Numbered from the stretch's first letter, positions 7,158 to 51,860 are shown. The stretch is DNA of 64,000 nucleotides from an uncultured archaeon (GCA_964486045.1 CAZALK010000010.1:84889-148888), one strand, 5' to 3'. Numbers and translations are program-made. Notes: generated by a model not told the origin, from the letters alone.

Positions 7158-8258
7158 TTATGTATTTTCTTCATTCTCTTCTTTTTCTTTATTAAATTCT
7201 TCAACTTTTTGCATTATTGATTCTGATGGTGTTGTTGGTATAGGTATTTTTTCATAAACTTCAATAAATTTTACATCCTCAATTTCTTCTGCCATATGTG
7301 TTTGTAAGTCCATGGCAAGCCCGAATTTAACATATGTTAAATTTTGGAAAAGAAGCATCTTTGGAATTATAATTTCAAGTGTTTTATCATCCTTGATGTA
7401 ATTAACTTTAAATTCAGATATATTCTCATTAGGAATTCCTTTATTTATCATAAAATACTCTATTTTTGCATTGAAATCTTCTATTTTGTCTATGATTTCT
7501 AAATTATAATCAAGATTTTGTCCTGCTAAAGGGTGATTGTAATCGATAATAACTCTTCCTTGAACAACATTAGTTATTACACCTCTTTGTCCTTTTTTAT
7601 TTAAGAACTCACGGCCTAATTCGGGATTCTTACCTTCACTTACCTTTCGAAATTTAGCAATACCCATTCTTTCTATTTTCTGGGGATCTCTTTTCCCATA
7701 TGCTTTAGAAGTGGGAATTCTAACCGATTTTTTCTCAAAGTAGTTCATTTCTTTAATTATTTCTGTAAGACCTTCATTCAAAAATCCAGGCTTTCCTACA
7801 ATAACAAATTCAGGAGTATAAAAACCTTTTTCAGCCTTCTTTTCATCATATGTTCCTGCTTTTTTAGCATCTTCTTCACTAGAAACTCTAAATATAATAC
7901 CTTTTTGGGTGCGTCCAGTTAATTTAACTAATATAAAATCTCCTTCTTCAACTTTTTTTCCTTGTAATTTTGATTTTTTTTGTTCTAATCTTTTTAATTC
8001 TTCTTGTATCTTTTCCACTTCTTTCTCTTCTATAGATGCTTCTTCAACAGCGTTAGTAGGACTTGTTTTAGGAGTTTCTTTCAAAATTACTTTAGCATTT
8101 TCTATAATTTTTGAAGCAGTTGCTTTTCCAATTCCCTTAAGTGCAGTTAAATCGTCAGTTTTTGCATTAGCTAATTTTTCAACTGTATCAATACCGGCTT
8201 GCTTTAAAGTATCCTCTTTTTTGCCAACGCCTTTTACATCACTTAAACTAAAACTCAT
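7158..8258 (-). CDS. Long-type archaeal FKBP peptidyl-prolyl isomerase (SlyD-like) with N-terminal helix-hairpin-helix domain
   Basis: IDYNHPLAGQNL and AYGKRDP motifs; N-terminal VKGVGKK / LKGIGKATA HhH motifs; start taken at ATG 8258. Confidence 0.88.
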   Translation of the reverse strand: MSFSLSDVKGVGKKEDTLKQAGIDTVEKLANAKTDDLTALKGIGKATASKIIENAKVILKETPKTSPTNAVEEASIEEKEVEKIQEELKRLEQKKSKLQGKKVEEGDFILVKLTGRTQKGIIFRVSSEEDAKKAGTYDEKKAEKGFYTPEFVIVGKPGFLNEGLTEIIKEMNYFEKKSVRIPTSKAYGKRDPQKIERMGIAKFRKVSEGKNPELGREFLNKKGQRGVITNVVQGRVIIDYNHPLAGQNLDYNLEIIDKIEDFNAKIEYFMINKGIPNENISEFKVNYIKDDKTLEIIIPKMLLFQNLTYVKFGLAMDLQTHMAEEIEDVKFIEVYEKIPIPTTPSESIMQKVEEFNKEKEENEENT

Positions 8259-8355
8259 AATTAACCCATTCAATTAAAATATAATAAATATAGAATAAAG
8301 AGTTAGGTTTTCAAATATATGATTACTTTTAGATTTTTCTAATTTTTGAATATCA

Positions 8356-8480
8356 TTATGAGACTGGTTTATATAGTATTCCTAAACCAGATGCATAATT
8401 TTTTACTTCTTGCATTTCTTGAGATGTCGGTCTTCGATTTATTTCTGGATAATCAAAACTATGATACTGAGGTCTATATT
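8356..8480 (-). pseudogene. Orphan duplicate of the last 40 codons of the radical SAM gene at 11119-12231
   Basis: Minus strand reads YRPQYHSFDYPEINRRPTSQEMQEVKNYASGLGILYKPVS*, 31/40 aa identical and collinear with 11119-11243. Confidence 0.93.
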
Positions 8481-8502
8481 TTTTATTATTAACCAATGAA
8501 AA

Positions 8503-9675
8503 TTAAGTCCAGAACTCTCTTTTTCTTGGCAAACTTTTATCATAAATATTTATCATCTCTCTCATTAAGTCTGCTCCTAAACTGATTTGATCTCCTTTAA
8601 CAGTATATTTTTTTTTAACTGGATCGTATTGGATGGAACCGGAATTAGAGACTGGTATGTTTAAGAATGGGGAATTTAAAATATCAGCAAGAAACTTGTT
8701 ACTACCAGAAGTTATTCTTGATCTCCCCATTGTCCCATCCCCATCATAATAACCAAGTAGAAACGCTAACAATAGCTTCCGATGTTTAAAATGTGGTAGT
8801 CGTATATTTTTTGATTTCTTTTTTCCTACTATAAATCCATGAGAAATAAGATAGTTACAAAATTGAGTGTTAATTAATCTAATTCTTCGAAATACATGTA
8901 TCTCACCTTCAGAAGTGATATATTTTTCAATACCGGGTTCATTGTTTATAATATCTAACCCAATAGAATCGGAAAACCTCTGCAGTAGAATGAAATCATC
9001 TTCTAGACACCCTACACCTAACCTATAATATGGTTCTCCTGCCTTATTTATACTATGTAATCTAATATATGCCTCAGCAAACAACCAACCTAACCAATAT
9101 GCTTTTTCATTTGTATCAATTTTTTTAAAATAATCAAGTTTTAGATTAGGGTGCTGCTCTAATATACCATTTGAACCACGAGCATATAGCTTAAGTTTAT
9201 TATAATTTTTATAATTTTTAATGATAGTTCTAATATTATTCTTTACTGAATCAATCTTATCTATTAATTTTGAATCCGATTCTTTTAATATCCAATAATT
9301 AAAAGATTTTATAAGGATATTTTCAATTTTCGTTAATAAATTTAAGCCTAATTGCTTTCCTTTTTGACTTTTTTGACATTTGTATCTAATATAATAAGGT
9401 TTTAAACCAAGCAACAGACTAAAGAATGCTGTATTTTCATTTGCTTTTCTGATACAAAAACAAGGATTTGGAATGAAAAATATTTGTTTTTTAATTGCTT
9501 TGAAAAGAGCAGTAGCATCAACAATTTTTTGTTCTTCTTCATCATTAGTAATAGTGATTCCAAAATCATCTTCAAAATTATTTATTCCACATTCTGGATT
9601 TATATTATAATCTTTACCTTTAAGCCTTACATCCTGCCTACAACTTAAGTCGTCTTTATTGTTTTTTTCGCTCAT
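8503..9675 (-). CDS. Free-standing two-motif LAGLIDADG homing endonuclease-like protein
   Basis: DYFKKIDTNEKAYWLGWLFAEAY and AFLLGYYDGDG motifs. Confidence 0.85.
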   Translation of the reverse strand: MSEKNNKDDLSCRQDVRLKGKDYNINPECGINNFEDDFGITITNDEEEQKIVDATALFKAIKKQIFFIPNPCFCIRKANENTAFFSLLLGLKPYYIRYKCQKSQKGKQLGLNLLTKIENILIKSFNYWILKESDSKLIDKIDSVKNNIRTIIKNYKNYNKLKLYARGSNGILEQHPNLKLDYFKKIDTNEKAYWLGWLFAEAYIRLHSINKAGEPYYRLGVGCLEDDFILLQRFSDSIGLDIINNEPGIEKYITSEGEIHVFRRIRLINTQFCNYLISHGFIVGKKKSKNIRLPHFKHRKLLLAFLLGYYDGDGTMGRSRITSGSNKFLADILNSPFLNIPVSNSGSIQYDPVKKKYTVKGDQISLGADLMREMINIYDKSLPRKREFWT

Positions 9676-9967
9676 AATATATCAGTCTCAATCAAGTGAA
9701 TTTTACTGCTTCCTACCATGCCGTTTATTCATCAATTACAATTTTTTTTTTTATAATCGGCATTATTCAATATTTTTTATAAATTTTCTATAAAAATACA
9801 AATATTTTCATTCTGTTCAACTATATAAAAATTTATGCTTATAAATTTTACGGAATATTTATAAAGGAAGAATTTATAAGAGGATTTCAATAGTATATAT
9901 AAAGGCAAAATCGTTAGGTTGAAAAAGGCAAAAATTTATAAACATAGATACTTATTTAACACCTTAC

Positions 9968-10042
9968 ACTACTATTAACTATTCTGAATGAATACCTAAT
10001 ACTACTATTAACATTTTTGGATGAATACCTGATATTACTATA
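9968..10042. repeat. Imperfect 33-bp tandem repeat (about 2.3 copies)
   Basis: ACTACTATTAAC...ATGAATACCT units starting at 9968 and 10001, partial third at 10034. Confidence 0.75.
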
Positions 10043-10373
10043 ATGTTTTATGACTCCGGTTTAGATTTGGTAAGTTAACTTATTCTTTTTGTTTAATCTT
10101 TATAAAAATCTCTCATTCAGAATTGAAGACTTTTGATGATGTCAATTTTTTTCCTTTAGTTTATGATTTTTATCACATTATATGATATGGGTTTTAAAAA
10201 TGAAGAAAAAGACTCAGTGTTTCATAGGTTTTAAATCATATAAAATATTCAAGAAAGATAAATTAGGAATCTAAGCAGAAAGTTGCTTATTCAATAAAAA
10301 AAACCCTTTCTACAGGTAGCTCAAAATCATTAAAACTTATATTAAAGACACTTGGATGGTGTTATAATTAATT

Positions 10374-11054
10374 ATGAGTAATATTAATATTATTTTGAAG
10401 AGATGTAATGAAGTTATTAATCAAGCAGAAGATGTTATAAAAAAGAATGAGCCTAGGCGTGTAATATACATTATTACCTCAATACAAAATATACTTAATA
10501 CAGTATATTCAGGTGAAGTTCCTGATTATTTGAATTATGAATATTTTATTGAACATGTTTTTCCAAAAATTTCAAGTCAGCCTGAATATATTTCAAAATA
10601 TAAAAAAATAGATAAACTTGTTGTTTACTTGGAAACATTTAAAGCCTTTAGAGATGACTTAGATAGTGGTTTAATTTCACACCTTTCTAATATTATATCT
10701 GTGGATATTTTTAGTAGTTTGATTGATCAAGCAACTCAACTTCGAGAAAATAATACTGAACCATTGAATCGAGCTGCATGTGTACTAACCAGAATAGTGT
10801 TGGAAGATACATTATTAAGATTAAGTAGAAATAATAACCTCACACTTTCTAATGAAAAAGCCTCTATAGCTAATGACGAATTGAGGAAGAAAAACATCTA
10901 TGGCCAGGCAAAGTGGAGAGAGATCCAATCATGGTTAGATATTGGAAATAAAGCTGCTCACCCTGATCCAGAGTTTATGACAATTAGCGAAATAGATATA
11001 GATAATATGATAAATAATGTGAGGAGATTTACTGAATTATATCTCCAGAATTAA
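10374..11054 (+). CDS. DUF4145/HEPN-domain protein
   Basis: RAACVLTRIVLEDTL helix and C-terminal GNKAAH motif. Confidence 0.7.
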   Translation: MSNINIILKRCNEVINQAEDVIKKNEPRRVIYIITSIQNILNTVYSGEVPDYLNYEYFIEHVFPKISSQPEYISKYKKIDKLVVYLETFKAFRDDLDSGLISHLSNIISVDIFSSLIDQATQLRENNTEPLNRAACVLTRIVLEDTLLRLSRNNNLTLSNEKASIANDELRKKNIYGQAKWREIQSWLDIGNKAAHPDPEFMTISEIDIDNMINNVRRFTELYLQN

Positions 11055-11118
11055 TTTAAGAAAAACAATGAGATGATAATCTGTTATACTAATAAGGAAA
11101 ACTCAATAATTTTCAAAA

Positions 11119-12231
11119 TTAAGAAACCGGTTTCCAGAGAATTCCTAATTTATCCGTATAACCTCTGACTTCTTGCATTTCTTGTGAAGTAGGTCGACGG
11201 TTTATCTCAGGATATTCAAATGATTTCCACTGTGGACGATATTGAGACATTATGTTTACGACAGCCTTCGATAACTCTTTAGCTACATAATCCAAAATCG
11301 GTTTAGAGCAACATTCTATATGTTTGGGCATAACAAGATGACGGATGATAATTTCACCACTACCCTCATCATGCACCCGTTTATGATTTCTAGCAATGAC
11401 ATCGAAGTAGTTATCAATACCAGAATATTTTTTGGCACATTGATTATTACCATACTTCCAATCTGGCAACCAAAAATCCATCAAATCAATAATGAGAGAT
11501 AAAGCTTTATCAGTCAAATAAAAATTGGAGTTCCAAAGTTGTGTGATATTTGACTTCTGATAAAGTAAGTTTCCAATTATTGTATGAATATTTGGAATTG
11601 GGTCTCCTCCCACATAATTAATATTTATTGCTCCTTTTTTGGCTAAATTATCTGCTATTACTGCTAATTGTTTGCTATCCACTTTTTGGGCTATGTCATC
11701 AATTTCCTTTTTATTTTTCCATGCTTGTGAAATATCGTAATTTTGGCAGAAAACACACCCAAAATTGCAACCTTGAAAAAAAATTGTCCCACTGGGAATA
11801 AGGGGTGTTTCTTCTCCCATATGTAGAAATGCTGAAGAAATATATGAATCTTTACTTATTAAACAAAATCCTACTTGTCCATCAATCCTATTCGTTTCAC
11901 ATCGACGCTCACAGTATATACAACTTTCAAGATATTTAATGGCTAGAGTTTCGATTAAATGGATATATGACCTAGGAGAAATTTTACGAGATTTAATTTC
12001 TTCGATGTTCTTTTTTAATAAATCATTAAACTCCCGTGATTTTTTTTTTAGTGTTATTTCAAGATTCTCAATCGAATCACTTGATTCATAATCACAATCA
12101 ATAGTTTTAGCGATTAAAAACCTTGCGATTTGTGAGCCATCAATAATCCCTCGATATCTTGAAAAGCGTTTAAGGATATCCTCATTTTGCCATACCGAAT
12201 CAGAATCTGGTCTAATGATTCTAAAAACCAT
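11119..12231 (-). CDS. Radical SAM protein, PflX-like pyruvate-formate-lyase activating enzyme family
   Basis: N-terminal CIYCERRC, GTIFFQGCNFGCVFCQN (CxxxCxxC), IIRHLVMP, NIMSQYRP. Confidence 0.9.
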   Translation of the reverse strand: MVFRIIRPDSDSVWQNEDILKRFSRYRGIIDGSQIARFLIAKTIDCDYESSDSIENLEITLKKKSREFNDLLKKNIEEIKSRKISPRSYIHLIETLAIKYLESCIYCERRCETNRIDGQVGFCLISKDSYISSAFLHMGEETPLIPSGTIFFQGCNFGCVFCQNYDISQAWKNKKEIDDIAQKVDSKQLAVIADNLAKKGAININYVGGDPIPNIHTIIGNLLYQKSNITQLWNSNFYLTDKALSLIIDLMDFWLPDWKYGNNQCAKKYSGIDNYFDVIARNHKRVHDEGSGEIIIRHLVMPKHIECCSKPILDYVAKELSKAVVNIMSQYRPQWKSFEYPEINRRPTSQEMQEVRGYTDKLGILWKPVS

Positions 12232-26537: not shown

Positions 26538-26685
26538 ATTTGTAAATTGGTAAATCTTACATTAAATATTTTTCCCTCTCGGATAATATGTAGATGTTAT
26601 CACCATATTTCTTCTATTTTTGTTTTAGATACCTTATTATCTAAATTAGTAAGCAAATTTTATGTTATTTTCTTGGGGAAACAAG

Positions 26686-27030
26686 ATGGGAAAACTTTGG
26701 AGAAAAAAAAATGATAATGACCTATTGAGCTCCCCACAAGAGGCAATGGGATTCTCAAAAGAATATTCTTCGCTGCTACATAACTTTATCATAAAGAAGT
26801 ACGACTTCTCAAACCTCAACCAAATAGAGGATATTAAAAAGCAATTATTAGGTCGCAGAATACTACTGATTAACGTAAAAGAAATTTTGGAGAATGGAGA
26901 AGTGTCAGAACTAAAAAGTTGCATAGAAGAATTGAAAATTTTTTTAAGAGAGAATGGAGGATCTATAGGGCGTCTTGGTGATCAATATCTCATATTAACA
27001 CCAAATTCTCATATAAAAATAGCAAACTAA
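26686..27030 (+). CDS. sepF: Archaeal SepF (cell division)
   Basis: IEDIKKQL..ILLINV..IEELK..GGSIGRLGDQYLILTP pattern; start at ATG 26686 or 26662. Confidence 0.78.
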   Translation: MGKLWRKKNDNDLLSSPQEAMGFSKEYSSLLHNFIIKKYDFSNLNQIEDIKKQLLGRRILLINVKEILENGEVSELKSCIEELKIFLRENGGSIGRLGDQYLILTPNSHIKIAN

Positions 27031-27829: not shown

Positions 27830-27999
27830 ATCCACTCTTAATAGAGCCTTCAAGGTAGAAAAGAGATAAATATGGTTTTCTCCTAGTATATAAGTTGCGA
27901 GTTGATGTATGAACAATTTTGAGTTGAGAGAATTCTCTGAGACTCCTGCACGTGATGACACCAAATTCTCATATAAAAATAGCAAATTAATAAGTAGGA

Positions 28000-45499: not shown

Positions 45500-47719
45500 A
45501 TGAGGAATATGAAAATCCATGTTGTTGATTCAAAAAATAAAAAACCGAAATTGAGGTTTCTTCTTGGATACATTAAGTCAAATTATTCAATTTTAATTTC
45601 TTACTTCAGTTTAATTTTTATTTTCCTTTCATTCTCAGTTATTCTTTACATGACAGAGACAAACGCTGAAATTTCCACGATTAAACAGGTTGAAAATCAG
45701 GATGTTGCACTAAATAAAGAGATTGTACTTAATGAAGTATCTCTTATTTACTCTGATATTTTAATCCTTTCTGAGAGGCAATCGATTCAGGAGTTTTTAG
45801 TGAATAATTCTGTAATTAATAAACAAATTGTAGCAGAACAATTTTTAACTTTTGCCAATTTTTCAGGTATATATGACCAAGTTCGGTTACTAGATGAAAC
45901 TGGAATGGAAGTAATCCGTATAAATTACAATTATAGTAATCCTTTCATAGTTCCTGAAATCGATCTACAAAATAAATCGAAAAGATATTATTTTGAAGAT
46001 GCATTTTCCTTGGAAAGAGGACAAGTATTTGTTTCACCACTGGATTTGAATGTCGAGTATGGGGAGATTGAACAACCCTTGAAACCTATGATTCGTATTG
46101 GTACTCCTGTTTTTGACTCCAATAATAGCAAAAGAGGTATTGTTTTAGTGAATTATCTAGCAAAACTGTTATTGGACAAATTAAGGCATACTTCATATGG
46201 TAATATAACCATGTTAAATTCTGATGGTTACTGGCTTCGGGGAGTAGATCCTGAAGACGAATGGGGCTTTATGTACCCACCGAAACTAAATAATACTCTC
46301 TCCTATCAGCAGTCCGAGGATTGGGATAAAATAAATAAATCGATGTATGGACAATTTTATGCAGAAGAAGGATTATTAACCTTTGATACATTATATCCTC
46401 TTTCAAGTATACAAGTTTCGTCCACTGGATCAGGAAGACCTTTTGAACCGAGTAACGCGAGTATAGCTGCCAATGAATATTATTGGAAGATTTTGTCTAT
46501 AGTACCAAATAAGCTTATTACCAATATTCATAATTTGTACTTTTTTCGCTCTATGTTCTTCTTCGCAATCGTTCTATTTATTTCATCTGTAGCTCTCATT
46601 TTTTTAATGTTTATGAATACTCGTAGAAAACATACGGAGGAAAAGCTTCGAGATACTCAGCAGGAATTGATCACCGATCGCAAGAAGACAGAGGAAGAAA
46701 TAGCGAATTTAGCAAAATTTCCCTCAGAAAACCCTTATCCTGTATTAAGGGTAAATAGAAGCAGAGTTATATACGTAAATGACTCAGGTAAACATCTGTT
46801 AAACGTCCAAAAAAGTGATGAAATACCAAAGATCATTCAAAAAGAAATTAATGAAGCTTTTGAGAGTAATTCTATTACAGAACCAGAAGTTAAACTTAAA
46901 AATAGAATTTATACGTTTATTATTACTCCACTTCTAGAAAAAGGCTATGTTAATATTTATGGCATGGATATAACTGAGAAAAAACTGGTTGAACAAAAAT
47001 TAAAAGAGATAAATAAGTTAAAGTCAGAGTTCCTTAGAAGAGCCTCTCATGAATTAAAAACACCACTTATTTCAATTAAAGGTTTCTCAGATTTAATATT
47101 AGCATTGCATAAGGATGAATTAAATCCAGATGTTATCTCAAAATTAACTGAAATAAATCAAGGTTGTGAGAGACTTCAGAATATAATAAATAATCTTTTA
47201 GTAACTTCTCGATTAGAATCACCAGATATAAAACCCAAAGTTCAGAAAGAAGATTTAACTTTTCTCATTAAATATTGTGTCCAAGAGTTGCAATCTTTAG
47301 CACAAACGAGAAACCAATCTATTAATTTAAACAGACTTGATGGACACTATGCAATTTTCGAGAAAGAGGAAATTCATGATGTAATTTCAAACCTATTAGC
47401 AAATGCGATTAAATACACTCCCCCCTATGGCAAAATTGAGGTAAAAACTAACATCCAAGATAGTTATGTAGTTATTTCAATAAAAGATAACGGGATTGGT
47501 TTTACTAATGATGAGAAAAAGAAAATCTTTCACCAATTTGGAAAAATCGAACGTTATGGTCAGGGTCTCGATTTAGGAATTGATGGTACTGGTTTAGGGT
47601 TATATATTTCAAAGAGAATTGTTGAATCGCATGGGGGGAAAATTTGGATGGAATCTGAAGGTAAAAATAAAGGAAGTACTTTTTATTTTTCACTTCCACT
47701 AATAGGAGATAAGATTTGA
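45500..47719 (+). CDS. Membrane sensor histidine kinase (TM-dCache-TM-PAS-like-HisKA-HATPase)
   Basis: YDQVRLLDE.G.E..R, NKSKRYYF, SPLDLNVE Cache motifs; SHELKTPL H-box. Confidence 0.92.
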   Translation: MRNMKIHVVDSKNKKPKLRFLLGYIKSNYSILISYFSLIFIFLSFSVILYMTETNAEISTIKQVENQDVALNKEIVLNEVSLIYSDILILSERQSIQEFLVNNSVINKQIVAEQFLTFANFSGIYDQVRLLDETGMEVIRINYNYSNPFIVPEIDLQNKSKRYYFEDAFSLERGQVFVSPLDLNVEYGEIEQPLKPMIRIGTPVFDSNNSKRGIVLVNYLAKLLLDKLRHTSYGNITMLNSDGYWLRGVDPEDEWGFMYPPKLNNTLSYQQSEDWDKINKSMYGQFYAEEGLLTFDTLYPLSSIQVSSTGSGRPFEPSNASIAANEYYWKILSIVPNKLITNIHNLYFFRSMFFFAIVLFISSVALIFLMFMNTRRKHTEEKLRDTQQELITDRKKTEEEIANLAKFPSENPYPVLRVNRSRVIYVNDSGKHLLNVQKSDEIPKIIQKEINEAFESNSITEPEVKLKNRIYTFIITPLLEKGYVNIYGMDITEKKLVEQKLKEINKLKSEFLRRASHELKTPLISIKGFSDLILALHKDELNPDVISKLTEINQGCERLQNIINNLLVTSRLESPDIKPKVQKEDLTFLIKYCVQELQSLAQTRNQSINLNRLDGHYAIFEKEEIHDVISNLLANAIKYTPPYGKIEVKTNIQDSYVVISIKDNGIGFTNDEKKKIFHQFGKIERYGQGLDLGIDGTGLGLYISKRIVESHGGKIWMESEGKNKGSTFYFSLPLIGDKI

Positions 47720-47975: not shown

Positions 47976-50900
47976 GTGAAATATTATATGAAATCATCAG
48001 TAAGAATTTCTGGGATTGATATCATAGGCCCTGCACCATGGGGTACTCATTTCTGTGTGTTTTATCAAACTAAAGACGATCTACTGGACATTTTAATACC
48101 ATATTTTAAAGTAGGTTTAGAGAATAATGAATATTGCATGTGGGTAACTTCTGAACCTTTAAATGAAAAAGACGCTGAGAAGGCTATGAGAGCTGCTATC
48201 CCTGATTTTGATAAGTATTTACAGAAAAATCAAATTGAGATCATTCCATATACAGAATGGTACGTGGAAAATAGTGAATTTAATCCTCAACGCGTTCTCA
48301 ATGGATGGATGGATAAATGTAATTATGCGTTAGATAAAGGATTCAAAGGATTAAGGTTGACGGGAAACACATTTTGGCTCGAAGATAAAGATTGGAAGTG
48401 TTTCACTGATTATGAGGAAGAAGTAAACAACGTAATCTCTTCCTATAATATAATTGCTGTGTGCACATATTCACTCGAAAATTGCGGATCTCTTGAGATT
48501 TTGGATGTTGTTCGTAATCATCAATATGCTCTTTTTAGACGAGAGGGATCCTGGGAGATATTTAAAAGCTCAGAGCAAGCTAAAATTGAACAAAAATTAA
48601 AAGAATCAGAAGAGAAGCATCGAGTTTTCATGGAAACTGCCAAAGATTTTATGCATATAATTGATAAAAAAGGTAATATAATCTATGCAAATAGAGATTT
48701 CCTTAGCTATAAAAAAGAGGAATTAATGAATATGCACATCACTAAACTGATCGGTGAGGAATCACTGCCTATATTCGGGCCGGAATTGAAAAATTTAATT
48801 GAAAATGGCAGCATTACTCTAACGGATCTGTATTGTAAAGGGAAAGATGGTACTAAAATTATCGGGGAATTAAACGTAGTTGCAATTTATGATACTGATG
48901 GAGAATTTAACGGCGCTAATGGTATCTTCAGGGACATTACCGAACGCAAGAAAACAGAACAACAATTAAAAGAATCGGAAGAAAAATTCCGTATGCTATT
49001 TAATACTGCAAATGATACAATATTCATTGTAGATTTGGAAGGTAACATTATTGAATGTAATAAAACATCAAACGAAAGATTAGGATATACGAGAGATGAA
49101 TTATTAAGTATGACTCCTATGGATTTAGATACACCAGAATATGCTGAAGGTGTTCTTGATCGGATTGAAATTGTCCGCCAGAAAGGAGAATTGTTTTATG
49201 AAGTGGAGCATTTACGAAAAGATGGAAAAATTCTCCCCGTTGAAATTAATAGTAAATTAATCAATTTTCAAGGAAAAACAGCGATTTTGAGTATTGTTCG
49301 CGATATTACCGAACGCAAGAAAATTGAACAAGAATTAAAAGAATCAGAAGAAAAATGGAGGGCTCTTAGTGAGAACTCACCCGCTCACGTACTGTTGTTA
49401 GATCCAGAACACAAAATCATCTTTATTAACCGGACAGTTCCAGATCTTTCAAAAGAAGAAGTCATTGGTACTTCAATATACAACTACACACCACAAGAAT
49501 TCCACAAGGTTACACGAGATTTATATTATTCTGTTTGGGAAACAGGAGAGCCTAGTTCAATCACCACAAAATATATAACAAAAGAAGGTGAAATTAGATA
49601 TTTTGATATGTGGGTTGGTCCTGTATTCCAATCAGAAAAAGTAGTAGCTTTAATTACCCACTCTATGGATATCACCAAACGCAAGAAAATTGAACAAGAA
49701 TTAAAAGAATCGGAAGAAAAATTCAGACTAATTGCTGAGCAGACGTTAATAGGTATTAATATTACCCAAAATAAAATTATTAAGTATATAAATAAAGCTT
49801 TTGCAGAGATGCATGAATACTCCGTTGAAGAAATGTATGGGTGGACTCTTAATGATCTTGTTAATAATGTTCATCCAGATGATCTACCCTTGGTTAGAGA
49901 AATGGCAAAATCACGAGAAACTGGAGATAAAAATATCCATCATTATTCATTCAGAACCATAACGAAATCGAAAAAAATAAAATGGTTAGATATTGTTTCA
50001 AAAGTTATCCAGTATGAAGGAAAAGGCGCACTACTGGCAACAATTACAGATATTACAGAGATAAAGGAAATCGAAGAAAAATTAAAAGAGTCAGAACATA
50101 ACCTTGGTGAACGAGTTAAGGAATTGACTTGTTTATTTCGGTTATCTAAACTTGTTGAGAATACAAGTATTTTTCTTGAAGATATTATCAACGGCACTCT
50201 TAATTTAATTCCTCCCGCATTTCAATTTCCAGAAATAACAACATCACGAATTACATTTAATGGTAAAGAATATAAATTTGAAAATTTTGAAGAAACAGAA
50301 TGCAAATTATCAACTACAGTGGAAGTTAATGAAAAACCACTGTTGATCGAAGTTTATTATCTCGAAGATAAACCATTTCTAAAAGAAGAACTCGATCTGA
50401 TTAGAGAGGTTGGAGTTCGATTAAAGGTTACACTTGAAGAGAAAGAAGCACAAAATAAATTAAGGATCTCCGAAGAAAAGTACCGTATGGGTTTCGAATC
50501 AAGCACAGATGGGATTGCTTCGGCTGATATGGAGGGTACTTTTCTTGATTTTAACAACGTATTTCTTGAGATGCTTGGTTATTCCAGAGAAGAACTTTTA
50601 AAATTAAGTTTCAGAGAGATAACACCTCAAAAATGGCATGAAATGGAAGATAACTTGATAATATCTCAGCTTGCTGATGGAAAAGATAGTGGTATTTATG
50701 AGAAAGAGTATATTCGAAAGAACGGCACAATTTTACCAATTAATAGTAGATTCTGGATCATCAAAGATGATCAAGAAGATCCAGTTAGGATGTGGAAAAT
50801 AGTGAGAGATATTACAGAACGTAAGAAGGCTGAAGAGGAAATCGCAAGTTTAGCAAAATTTCCATCAGAGGACCCTTATCCTGTTTTAAGAGTAAATAAA

Positions 50901-51860
50901 AACATAATCATATATGTAAACGACTCAGGTAAAAATCTATTAAATGTCAAAGAAAACGACGAAATACCATTTATCCTTCAAAAAGAGATTAATGAAGCAT
51001 TTGAGAGTAATTCCATCACTGAATCAGAAATTAAACTTAAAAATAGATTTTATTCATTTGCCATTACCCCACTTAGAGAAAAAGGCTACGTTAATATTTA
51101 TGGAATGGATATAACTGAGAAAAAGCAGGTTGAACAAAAGCTAAAAGAGATAAATAAATTAAAGTCAGAGTTCCTCAGAAGGGCTTCTCATGAATTAAAA
51201 ACACCACTTATCTCAATTAAAGGCTTTTCAGATTTAATTTTAGCATTACATAGAGATCAAATAAATCCAGATGTTATCTCAAAATTAGATGAAATAAACC
51301 AGGGTTGCGAACGACTTCAGAATATAATAAATAATCTTTTAACAACCTCTCGATTAGAATCACCAGATATTGAGCCAAAAGTTCAGAGGGAAGACTTAAC
51401 TTTTCTCATTAAATTTTGCGTCCATGAGTTGCAATCTTTAGCACAAACGAGAAACCAATCTATTAATTTAGATATACATGATGGTCAATATGCTATGTTC
51501 GAGAAAGAAGAAATGCATGATGTAATTTCAAACCTATTAACAAATGCGATTAAATACACACCTCCTAATGGCAAAATTGATGTAAAGACTGACATAAAAG
51601 GAAAAAATGTGGTCATTTCAATAAAAGATAACGGGATTGGGTTTACTAACGATGAGAAAACAAAAATCTTTCAACAATTTGGAAAAATCGAACGTTATGG
51701 TCAGGGTCTTGATTTAGGAATTGATGGTACTGGTTTAGGGTTATATATCTCAAAGAGAATTGTTGAATCGCATGGGGGGAAAATTTGGATGGAATCTGAG
51801 GGAAAGGATAAAGGAAGTACGTTTCATTTTTCTCTTCCACTTATAAGAGACAAGATTTGA
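47976..51860 (+). CDS. Cytoplasmic histidine kinase (MEDS + about 5 PAS + GAF-like + HisKA-HATPase)
   Basis: PWGTHFCVFY MEDS domain; repeated DITERKK.EQ.LKESEEK linkers; SHELKTPL. Confidence 0.93.
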   Translation: MKYYMKSSVRISGIDIIGPAPWGTHFCVFYQTKDDLLDILIPYFKVGLENNEYCMWVTSEPLNEKDAEKAMRAAIPDFDKYLQKNQIEIIPYTEWYVENSEFNPQRVLNGWMDKCNYALDKGFKGLRLTGNTFWLEDKDWKCFTDYEEEVNNVISSYNIIAVCTYSLENCGSLEILDVVRNHQYALFRREGSWEIFKSSEQAKIEQKLKESEEKHRVFMETAKDFMHIIDKKGNIIYANRDFLSYKKEELMNMHITKLIGEESLPIFGPELKNLIENGSITLTDLYCKGKDGTKIIGELNVVAIYDTDGEFNGANGIFRDITERKKTEQQLKESEEKFRMLFNTANDTIFIVDLEGNIIECNKTSNERLGYTRDELLSMTPMDLDTPEYAEGVLDRIEIVRQKGELFYEVEHLRKDGKILPVEINSKLINFQGKTAILSIVRDITERKKIEQELKESEEKWRALSENSPAHVLLLDPEHKIIFINRTVPDLSKEEVIGTSIYNYTPQEFHKVTRDLYYSVWETGEPSSITTKYITKEGEIRYFDMWVGPVFQSEKVVALITHSMDITKRKKIEQELKESEEKFRLIAEQTLIGINITQNKIIKYINKAFAEMHEYSVEEMYGWTLNDLVNNVHPDDLPLVREMAKSRETGDKNIHHYSFRTITKSKKIKWLDIVSKVIQYEGKGALLATITDITEIKEIEEKLKESEHNLGERVKELTCLFRLSKLVENTSIFLEDIINGTLNLIPPAFQFPEITTSRITFNGKEYKFENFEETECKLSTTVEVNEKPLLIEVYYLEDKPFLKEELDLIREVGVRLKVTLEEKEAQNKLRISEEKYRMGFESSTDGIASADMEGTFLDFNNVFLEMLGYSREELLKLSFREITPQKWHEMEDNLIISQLADGKDSGIYEKEYIRKNGTILPINSRFWIIKDDQEDPVRMWKIVRDITERKKAEEEIASLAKFPSEDPYPVLRVNKNIIIYVNDSGKNLLNVKENDEIPFILQKEINEAFESNSITESEIKLKNRFYSFAITPLREKGYVNIYGMDITEKKQVEQKLKEINKLKSEFLRRASHELKTPLISIKGFSDLILALHRDQINPDVISKLDEINQGCERLQNIINNLLTTSRLESPDIEPKVQREDLTFLIKFCVHELQSLAQTRNQSINLDIHDGQYAMFEKEEMHDVISNLLTNAIKYTPPNGKIDVKTDIKGKNVVISIKDNGIGFTNDEKTKIFQQFGKIERYGQGLDLGIDGTGLGLYISKRIVESHGGKIWMESEGKDKGSTFHFSLPLIRDKI

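Follow-up and report, generated by a model that had tools for sequence, protein, structure and literature searches.

A LAGLIDADG cassette between two copies of a radical SAM gene end: a probable archaeal counterpart of yeast WHO elements

Locus anatomy and gene products

The stretch of DNA considered here, 64,000 nucleotides (nt) from an uncultured Asgard archaeon of the Loki type (GCA_964486045.1, CAZALK010000010.1:84889-148888), was analyzed whole and is called the window below. It carries a gene for a radical SAM enzyme (rSAM) that is followed downstream by a second, partial copy of its own 3′ end, and the 2.76-kb stretch between these two tail copies is a cassette with a free-standing LAGLIDADG endonuclease gene and one passenger gene. 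The features of the locus are listed in the direction in which rSAM is read; positions are counted from the first letter of the window, amino acids are abbreviated as aa, and "W" and "Y" denote two types of rSAM end.

12231..11119, minus strand: rSAM host gene, 370 aa; a chimera, its last part of the travelling W type
11118..11243, minus strand: active copy of the duplicated rSAM end (codons 329-370, stop codon and 1 nt); direct repeat, from alignment
11168..11184, minus strand: 17-nt core CAAGAAATGCAAGAAGT, active copy; identical in both tail copies, exchange point and predicted center of the nuclease target
11119..11167, minus strand: diagnostic W-type 3′ portion of rSAM, RGYTDKLGILWKPVS plus stop codon; the piece that would travel with the cassette
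10223..11112, plus strand: cargo module with a DUF4145/HEPN-like gene (open reading frame (ORF) 10374-11054, 226 aa, convergent to rSAM)
9676..10222, no strand: spacer and upstream region of the endonuclease gene
8503..9675, minus strand: free-standing single-chain LAGLIDADG endonuclease gene, 390 aa
8422..8480, minus strand: orphan copy, 5′ half (codons 329-347); element-borne, likely a homology arm
8405..8421, minus strand: 17-nt core, orphan copy
8356..8404, minus strand: orphan copy, 3′ half, KNYASGLGILYKPVS plus stop codon; native Y type, grouping with empty-site tails
7158..8355, minus strand: 82-nt spacer and FKBP26-type/HhH gene (8273..7158, from Pfam); conserved right flank and putative right homology arm

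The tail copies form a single long direct repeat (8355-8480 and 11118-11243; 126 nt, 71% identity, spacing 2763 nt). Active and orphan tails share 31 of 40 aa and 83 of 120 nt, or 86 of 123 nt if the stop codon is included, which agrees exactly with the manual counts in an earlier note made from this sequence. That note also remarked on the many synonymous changes, and the proportion of synonymous differences (pS) is indeed 0.71. The synonymous rate (dS) is about 2.3 and its ratio to the non-synonymous rate (dN/dS) is 0.10, with synonymous sites near saturation; the two copies must therefore have diverged for a long time as working gene ends, in separate lineages. The abrupt onset of similarity reported in the same note is likewise confirmed: it begins at position 8480, 22 nt past the LAGLIDADG stop codon (8505-8503), and just "AA" is common to both copies before the Tyr-329 codon. 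The orphan is not a chance resemblance, because a whole-genome search with the rSAM protein recovers it at E = 1.7e-14.

The host gene has a Pfam Radical_SAM match (41.6 bits) and, in NCBIfam, only sub-threshold likeness to activase-type families. Its orthologue is single and full-length in 30 of the 40 relatives searched. Two full-length tandem rSAM paralogues, from which an orphan could have arisen by deletion (the case that the earlier note named as refuting its proposal), were found in none of the 40; other rSAM matches are at most 35% identical and lie elsewhere. Between the 226-aa and 390-aa ORFs is a spacer of 698 nt, part of which (9710-10140) is conserved in the related loci L069 and L072. 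No RNA genes were detected in the cassette by Rfam or by ARAGORN/tRNA scans. The orphan is in frame with the nuclease ORF in the window, with one TAA and eight sense codons (24 nt) between them (8479-8505). A read-through fusion of the two was considered and rejected, as the in-frame arrangement is probably coincidence; in L067, whose nuclease is 90% identical, the orphan is out of frame.

On a different contig, the same genome has a third copy of the rSAM end (163 nt, 96% identical to the active tail). It spans codons 318-370 and 8 nt beyond, with a 1-nt deletion (L037:9980-10141; contig C13:20279-20440), and adjoins an AlbA_2/STAND-NTPase gene truncated at its P-loop, in a neighborhood rich in defense-like genes. 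Either the remains of a further cassette or an ectopic insertion could account for it.

No Pfam match above cut-off was obtained for the 390-aa protein (LAGLIDADG_3 at just E = 0.017), but it has 239 homologues, many with PF14528 and named LAGLIDADG homing endonucleases in Asgard assemblies. Both LAGLIDADG motifs are intact (WLGWLFAEA with E201, LLGYYDGDG with D313), and an alignment of 42 homologues has A192, Y193, L195, G196, D311, G312, D313, and G314 invariant. An AlphaFold2 (AF2) model, with a predicted local distance difference test score (pLDDT) of 83, consists of a helical N-domain (residues 54-160) and a LAGLIDADG core whose two units, in residues 189-386, form the pseudo-dimeric alpha-beta-beta-alpha-beta-beta-alpha fold. 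Foldseek gave bI3 maturase, I-SceI, I-AniI, and I-DmoI as the best PDB matches to this model, with E down to 3.9e-06 and template-modeling (TM) scores by target of about 0.5. The model thus points to a LAGLIDADG fold in which both catalytic acidic residues are kept. Neither a Hint nor a zinc-finger domain was found in the nuclease by Pfam or NCBIfam, and PADLOC and NCBIfam gave no name to either the nuclease or the passenger gene.

The two ends of the nuclease vary among relatives. Residues 1-47 of the window copy are disordered and of chimeric origin, resembling the first ~44 residues of an otherwise unrelated 613-aa ORF that adjoins an rSAM tail in L073. This ORF has no Pfam or PADLOC match, and its Atlas scores are below 0.8. 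A C-terminal helix-turn-helix (HTH)-like extension of about 68-70 residues is present in L038, L039, L070, and L082, is missing in the window copy, and is short or missing in L069, L080, and L081 as well.

The passenger gene belongs to an 890-nt cargo unit (10223-11112) that occurs with identical ends, at 93-97% identity, in four other contigs. Its protein family is small, with PF13643 (DUF4145) in 4 of 32 members, and its own DUF4145 match (E = 4.8e-4, 20.6 bits) is under the Pfam cut-off of 23.1. Strong purifying selection is indicated by a dN/dS of 0.078. The best PDB matches to its AF2 model (pLDDT 90) are HEPN domains, including AF_0298 (TM by target 0.71), HepT toxins, and sacsin HEPN, yet all have E >= 0.13. 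The protein may thus have a HEPN-like fold, as the earlier note proposed. It lacks the Rx4-6H motif, with no Arg 4-6 residues before the His of the invariant W-L-D-I-G-N-x-A-A-H(196), and the invariant R124, R133, and R140 are located away from the GNxAAH motif; the addiction or toxin role suggested in that note is at most a possibility. The gene usually stands tail-to-tail with a HEPN_Swt1-like gene matching the PADLOC candidate PDC-M34B (three of the four other contigs; L072, L075, and L076). The window lacks this partner; there, the module abuts the rSAM tail directly, 8 nt past the rSAM stop codon.

Occupied and empty alleles at the rSAM end

The gene order GIFT-like gene, rSAM, FKBP is conserved in the genus, and ten of its genomes have an empty site, with FKBP following rSAM after 82-97 nt. 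All 10 empty loci have rSAM tails of the ..(Y/F)(E/K)PVS type, while tails of the ..W(K/R)PVS type are found at 14 of the 14 loci with an insert or another downstream gene. Among the latter, a two-domain GNAT-like gene is convergent to the W-type rSAM end in five genomes (L014 in genome G001, L004, L005, L007, and L009). The G001 copy is frameshifted, is followed by a degenerate Y-type orphan, and may be former cargo.

A pattern search with the orphan 3′ half recovered an empty allele on a metagenome contig (L085). It has a full-length rSAM, 81% identical in aa to that of the window, followed by FKBP after 82 nt with no nuclease gene, and its FKBP flank has 84.7% nt identity to the window. The tail of this allele is a mosaic of the two window copies. 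Left of the 17-nt core it matches the active copy at 52 of 57 nt and the orphan at about 70% (41/60). On the right side the relation is reversed, with 54 of 55 nt shared with the orphan and 36 of 55 with the active copy; the spacer 3′ of the tail toward FKBP is identical to that of the window at 88 of 95 nt. L067/L072-L074 represent an occupied sister lineage of L085, with rSAM bodies 96-98% identical up to nt ~750. Here, too, the orphan 3′ half (55/55) and the sequence downstream (27/27) are identical to the empty allele, with 38 of 52 matches in the 5′ half. The window and L067 orphans (8356-8480 and L067:7190-7309) differ by seven synonymous and five non-synonymous changes (dN/dS 0.17), and 11 of these 12 differences fall in the first 66 nt; the numbers are small, and would fit a refreshing from working tails at each homing event.

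Across loci, the W/Y contrast is confined to the last 46 nt of the tail (0.83 within W vs. 0.63 between groups), with no consistent W/Y difference in the first 57 nt (0.70 within vs. 0.67 between). Immunity is therefore unlikely to reside at codon 329, and the L085 mosaic together with the contrast in the last 46 nt places the exchange point at the core, codons 348-353. This shortens the foreign 3′ end that the earlier note had recognized, which was taken to begin at codon 329: the foreign-type, W part of the active rSAM comprises the last ~17 codons only, and the orphan combines an element-borne 5′ half with a native-type 3′ half. It is also possible that the orphan came in from a donor lineage together with the element and is not the old tail of this genome.

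One clade of nucleases, with proteins 55-90% identical, is found at this rSAM 3′ end in eight loci (the window, L067/L072, L038, L039, L070, L080, L081, and L082), which span two genera and several metagenome contigs. The next closest homologues are just about 41% identical and lie at other places, and the clade is therefore target-specific. Both nuclease orientations occur, orphan tails are present in six of the eight loci, and the cargo is variable: none, a SIR2_2-like gene, a 282-aa ORF, or a defense-like set of ~16 kb. The smallest elements consist of the tail and the nuclease gene only (L038 and L082). Besides the window, the arrangements are:

L038 (another genus): nuclease convergent, with a 30-nt overlap with the gene end; orphan; FKBP
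L039 and L070/L071: nuclease at the gene end, without an orphan in the available sequence
L067/L068/L084: arrangement as in the window
L080: cargo ORF and two further tail remnants
L081: SIR2_2-like cargo; orphan; FKBP
L082: orphan; FKBP

The window and L038 orphans have the same first codon, 329. Within the clade, the nuclease is under purifying selection, since its dN/dS is 0.22-0.40. The one exception among the retrieved contexts is L069, where an 87% identical nuclease has another context and a different 3′ junction. The genome of the window holds no copy of the clade besides the one described here. Two genomes (G022 and G001) have kept orphans but have no nuclease gene, which fits the usual decay phase of homing endonuclease genes.

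Separate trees of the gene body and the tails, a check suggested in the earlier note, disagree. In the maximum-likelihood tree of rSAM residues 1-328, occupied and empty loci are intermixed (support 98/95 for L020 with L021, 92/89 for L007 with L010, and 94/92 for a clade of mixed kind). In the tail tree, all active tails of occupied loci group together and orphans group with empty-site tails, with moderate support. Identity along the gene also changes abruptly. Between the rSAM genes of the window and G022, identity rises from 67% before nt 696 to 86% after it (maximum chi-square 47.8), and the two 5′ parts are among the most distant; window and L085 are 90-91% identical between nt 840 and about 1040 vs. 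72.5% over 8.6 kb upstream; and L073 and L085 drop from 96-98% up to nt ~750 to 65-91% beyond. Such local breaks are marks of gene conversion with co-conversion of flanks, as at FBA1 in the WHO system of yeasts (PMC7282813).

These comparisons also bear on the simplest origin of a direct repeat in the same orientation, namely that the gene end was duplicated in tandem in this lineage, after which the copies diverged and genes were inserted between them. A recent duplication is rejected because of the dS of about 2.3 between the copies, vs. about 0.25 for the nuclease and cargo genes against their nearest relatives. Moreover, the active tail shares 96% identity with the third copy, on a different contig, and over 86% with the allele of a genome whose gene body is distant, while the orphan 3′ half agrees at 98% with an empty-allele tail from another lineage. 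We consider such a duplication extremely improbable.

Stacked tails, other genes, and a proposed mode of spread

Two loci contain stacked tails, with three rSAM ends each (L072-L074 and L080). L072-L074 are parts of one 20-kb metagenome contig that carries about 16 kb of defense-type genes between rSAM ends, in the following order:

Positions 1-7 in gene order: full rSAM with W tail; 613-aa ORF; HEPN_Swt1-like gene; DUF4145-like gene (96% aa identical to that of the window); NikA-like gene; three ORFs; DEAD-box helicase
Positions 8-13 in gene order: rSAM fragment, codons 269-371; HEPN_RiboL-PSP-like gene; DUF87 ATPase; WD40 protein; nuclease (90% identical); Y-type orphan

Large defense-type cargo can thus sit between tails. 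The contig looks like the product of two nested invasions with different left junctions, the second at codon ~269, adjoining the 613-aa ORF. Modules are reshuffled among the arrangements in the window, L072-L074, and L069.

Cargo-rich islands of this size at one site, and an empty allele that reads like the active copy left of the shared identical core and like the orphan right of it (the pattern expected of attB = attL x attR), would also suit a Campbell-type integration. In that case a circular element with a full tail copy as attachment site would have entered by one crossover in the 17-nt core, made either by a site-specific recombinase (unidentified or lost) or by host homologous recombination, with the LAGLIDADG gene as cargo or stabilizer. 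However, Pfam, NCBIfam, and PADLOC revealed no integrase, transposase, or recombinase domain in either the cassette of the window or the ~16-kb island, and no integrase or transposase domain was seen in the minimal tail-plus-nuclease elements. An attachment site of 126 nt cannot explain why similarity between distant alleles extends 150-290 nt upstream of the repeat; other rSAM fragments begin at codons 269 and 318; and the nuclease clade tracks the target gene while the cargo changes. Integration of this kind is, in our view, unlikely.

The earlier note had also suggested that other LAGLIDADG genes of Lokiarchaeia be surveyed for adjacent duplicated gene tails. Self-comparison of 29 loci with homologues from the order, each with 1.5-kb flanks, revealed that nuclease genes of more distant clade members are likewise bracketed by gene ends, one active and one orphan, at a PGM/PMM-family gene (L040 and L041), at an AMP-binding enzyme gene (L044), and at a SNF2 helicase followed by a SWIM protein (L047 and L058). 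A weak case was seen at a HAD/P-type ATPase-like gene (L061). Both nuclease orientations are represented among these brackets.

Two other repeats in the window concern other genes. The end of a SepF-like ORF (26662-27030) has an 11-codon match (91%) about 930 nt away (26998-27030 and 27958-27990). Neighboring histidine kinase genes (45500-47719 and 47976-51860) are 86% identical over their C-terminal ~350 residues, which is ordinary tandem paralogy and unrelated to the cassette.

It is also conceivable that no dedicated mobility is involved, and that foreign chromosomal DNA of relatives whose gene order differs entered by one homologous and one illegitimate crossover, leaving partial duplicates of the tail, with the LAGLIDADG gene as an unrelated passenger. 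The mosaic island content, rearranged between contigs, agrees with this, as do W-type tails that are followed by a GNAT, FGGY kinase, or DUF423 gene with the nuclease gene absent. It would nonetheless leave unexplained the recurrence of one nuclease clade at this rSAM end (eight loci, from two genera and several metagenome contigs), the orphan start at codon 329 in both the window and L038, and the other clade members that bracket duplicated tails of other genes. We judge it very unlikely, somewhat more so than integration.

Our preferred reading is that the cassette is an archaeal counterpart of the yeast WHO elements, which homes by replacing the rSAM 3′ end and carries cargo along; from the sequences compared here we put its probability at roughly 0.75. 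The mobile unit would consist of a nuclease-resistant W-type rSAM end, the cargo, the free-standing LAGLIDADG gene, and a partial rSAM tail that serves as downstream homology arm. Once DNA from an occupied chromosome encounters an empty Y-type allele on another chromosome, the endonuclease would cut that allele near the QEMQEV core (codons 348-353). The break would be repaired from the occupied chromosome, with pairing on the left through the rSAM body and on the right through the orphan tail and the FKBP region. The interval would thereby be copied in, leaving the gene intact with a new set of last ~17 codons and turning the recipient's old end into the orphan 3′ half. Each resulting copy would have one "wrong" half-site and so be immune, and any cargo between the two tails would travel along. 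The earlier note had proposed a free-standing LAGLIDADG gene with a replacement rSAM 3′ end, analogous to the fungal cases; this idea gains support from the empty sites, the eight loci, the discordant trees, the stacked tails, and the brackets at other genes.

Several points weigh against homing by end replacement. A single crossover between tail copies, in integration or deletion, explains the mosaic of the empty allele equally well, and the mosaic alone does not prove a double-strand break. Several loci with W tails lack the nuclease gene and have a GNAT, FGGY kinase, or DUF423 gene downstream, and L039 and L070 lack an orphan within the sequence available. The tail tree is built on 120 nt only. 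Both cleavage and transfer are inferred. Finally, with its chimeric, disordered N-terminus and no HTH-like extension, the window copy may no longer be mobile; judging from its sequence, we would give present mobility slightly less than an even chance.

Comparison with known homing systems

Full-text literature searches found no published description of an archaeal tail-swapping element, and spread by tail replacement has so far been published only for yeast WHO elements and fungal mitochondria. The cassette would exemplify a third route for homing endonucleases, one that uses neither intron nor intein and is here common in Asgard archaea, which among prokaryotes are the nearest relatives of eukaryotes. 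It would account for orphan gene ends, for chimeric evolution of conserved genes (which matters for phylogenetic markers), and for islands without integrases, and it suggests a route for defense-type cargo between Lokiarchaeial lineages. It also predicts a nuclease target of about 20-30 bp around the 17-nt core, and offers new LAGLIDADG scaffolds with natural pairs of predicted sensitive and resistant alleles.

More tentatively, and with the odds in our estimate somewhat against it, tail-swapping LAGLIDADG cassettes of Lokiarchaeia could be general vehicles and anchors for defense-type genes, beyond small selfish genes. If so, each homing would copy into naive chromosomes whatever lies between the replacement and orphan ends, and the ends of conserved housekeeping genes would be integrase-free hotspots for defense islands. 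Candidate defense-type cargo includes the HEPN-like and SIR2-like genes and the ~16-kb set, in which three HEPN-type genes accompany a DEAD-box helicase and a DUF87 ATPase. The W and Y ends would then record an arms race of the nuclease with its target.

The closest known parallel is provided by the WHO elements at FBA1 of Torulaspora and Lachancea yeasts (Coughlan et al., 2020, PMC7282813; Osborne, Monnin and Wolfe, 2026 preprint, 10.64898/2026.08.13.744650). Both systems have a LAGLIDADG-type nuclease gene just downstream of a conserved host gene, an insertion that swaps the 3′ end of the gene for a variant while the old end is pushed downstream as a homology-arm fragment, discordant trees of 5′ and 3′ gene parts, and stacked fragments from repeated invasion; neither RNA nor protein splicing is required. 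The element described here differs in being archaeal and in having a radical SAM enzyme gene as host, in the very short piece replaced (about 17 codons past the 17-nt core), and in the unrelated cargo of its cassettes, which includes HEPN-like and SIR2-like genes and reaches ~16 kb. The WHO/HO family combines an intein-derived Hint domain with LAGLIDADG and a C-terminal zinc finger, whereas the proteins here have neither Hint nor zinc finger, but a helical N-domain and, in some copies, an HTH-like extension. The element thus works like WHO, yet lies outside the WHO/HO protein family. Cleavage has been demonstrated for WHO, whereas here it is predicted from sequence.

A free-standing endonuclease ORF also lies beside a partial C-terminal gene duplication at the mitochondrial atp6 of Allomyces. 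Similarly, free-standing LAGLIDADG or GIY-YIG ORFs are found between the gene and a duplicated C-terminal segment at cob and atp6 in mitochondria of Endoconidiophora resinifera (PMC6279837). These cases differ from ours in that they concern organelle genomes, are usually free of cargo, and have mostly degenerate ORFs; the Endoconidiophora study did not report a comparison of empty with occupied sites at the population level.

In the intron-less homing of phage T4 Seg and Mob enzymes (PMC2988022, PMC2790892), a free-standing nuclease likewise cuts a nearby site in genomes without its gene, flanks are co-converted, and neighbors hitch-hike. However, these are GIY-YIG and HNH enzymes whose genes usually occupy intergenic positions, and neither rebuilding of a gene end nor orphan tails are involved. 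Enzymes of archaeal rRNA introns and inteins (I-DmoI, I-Tsp061I, and PI-PfuI) share the fold and catalytic motifs of the window nuclease, but ride in a self-splicing intron or intein. The window nuclease has neither, and its host gene would be kept by replacement of its end.

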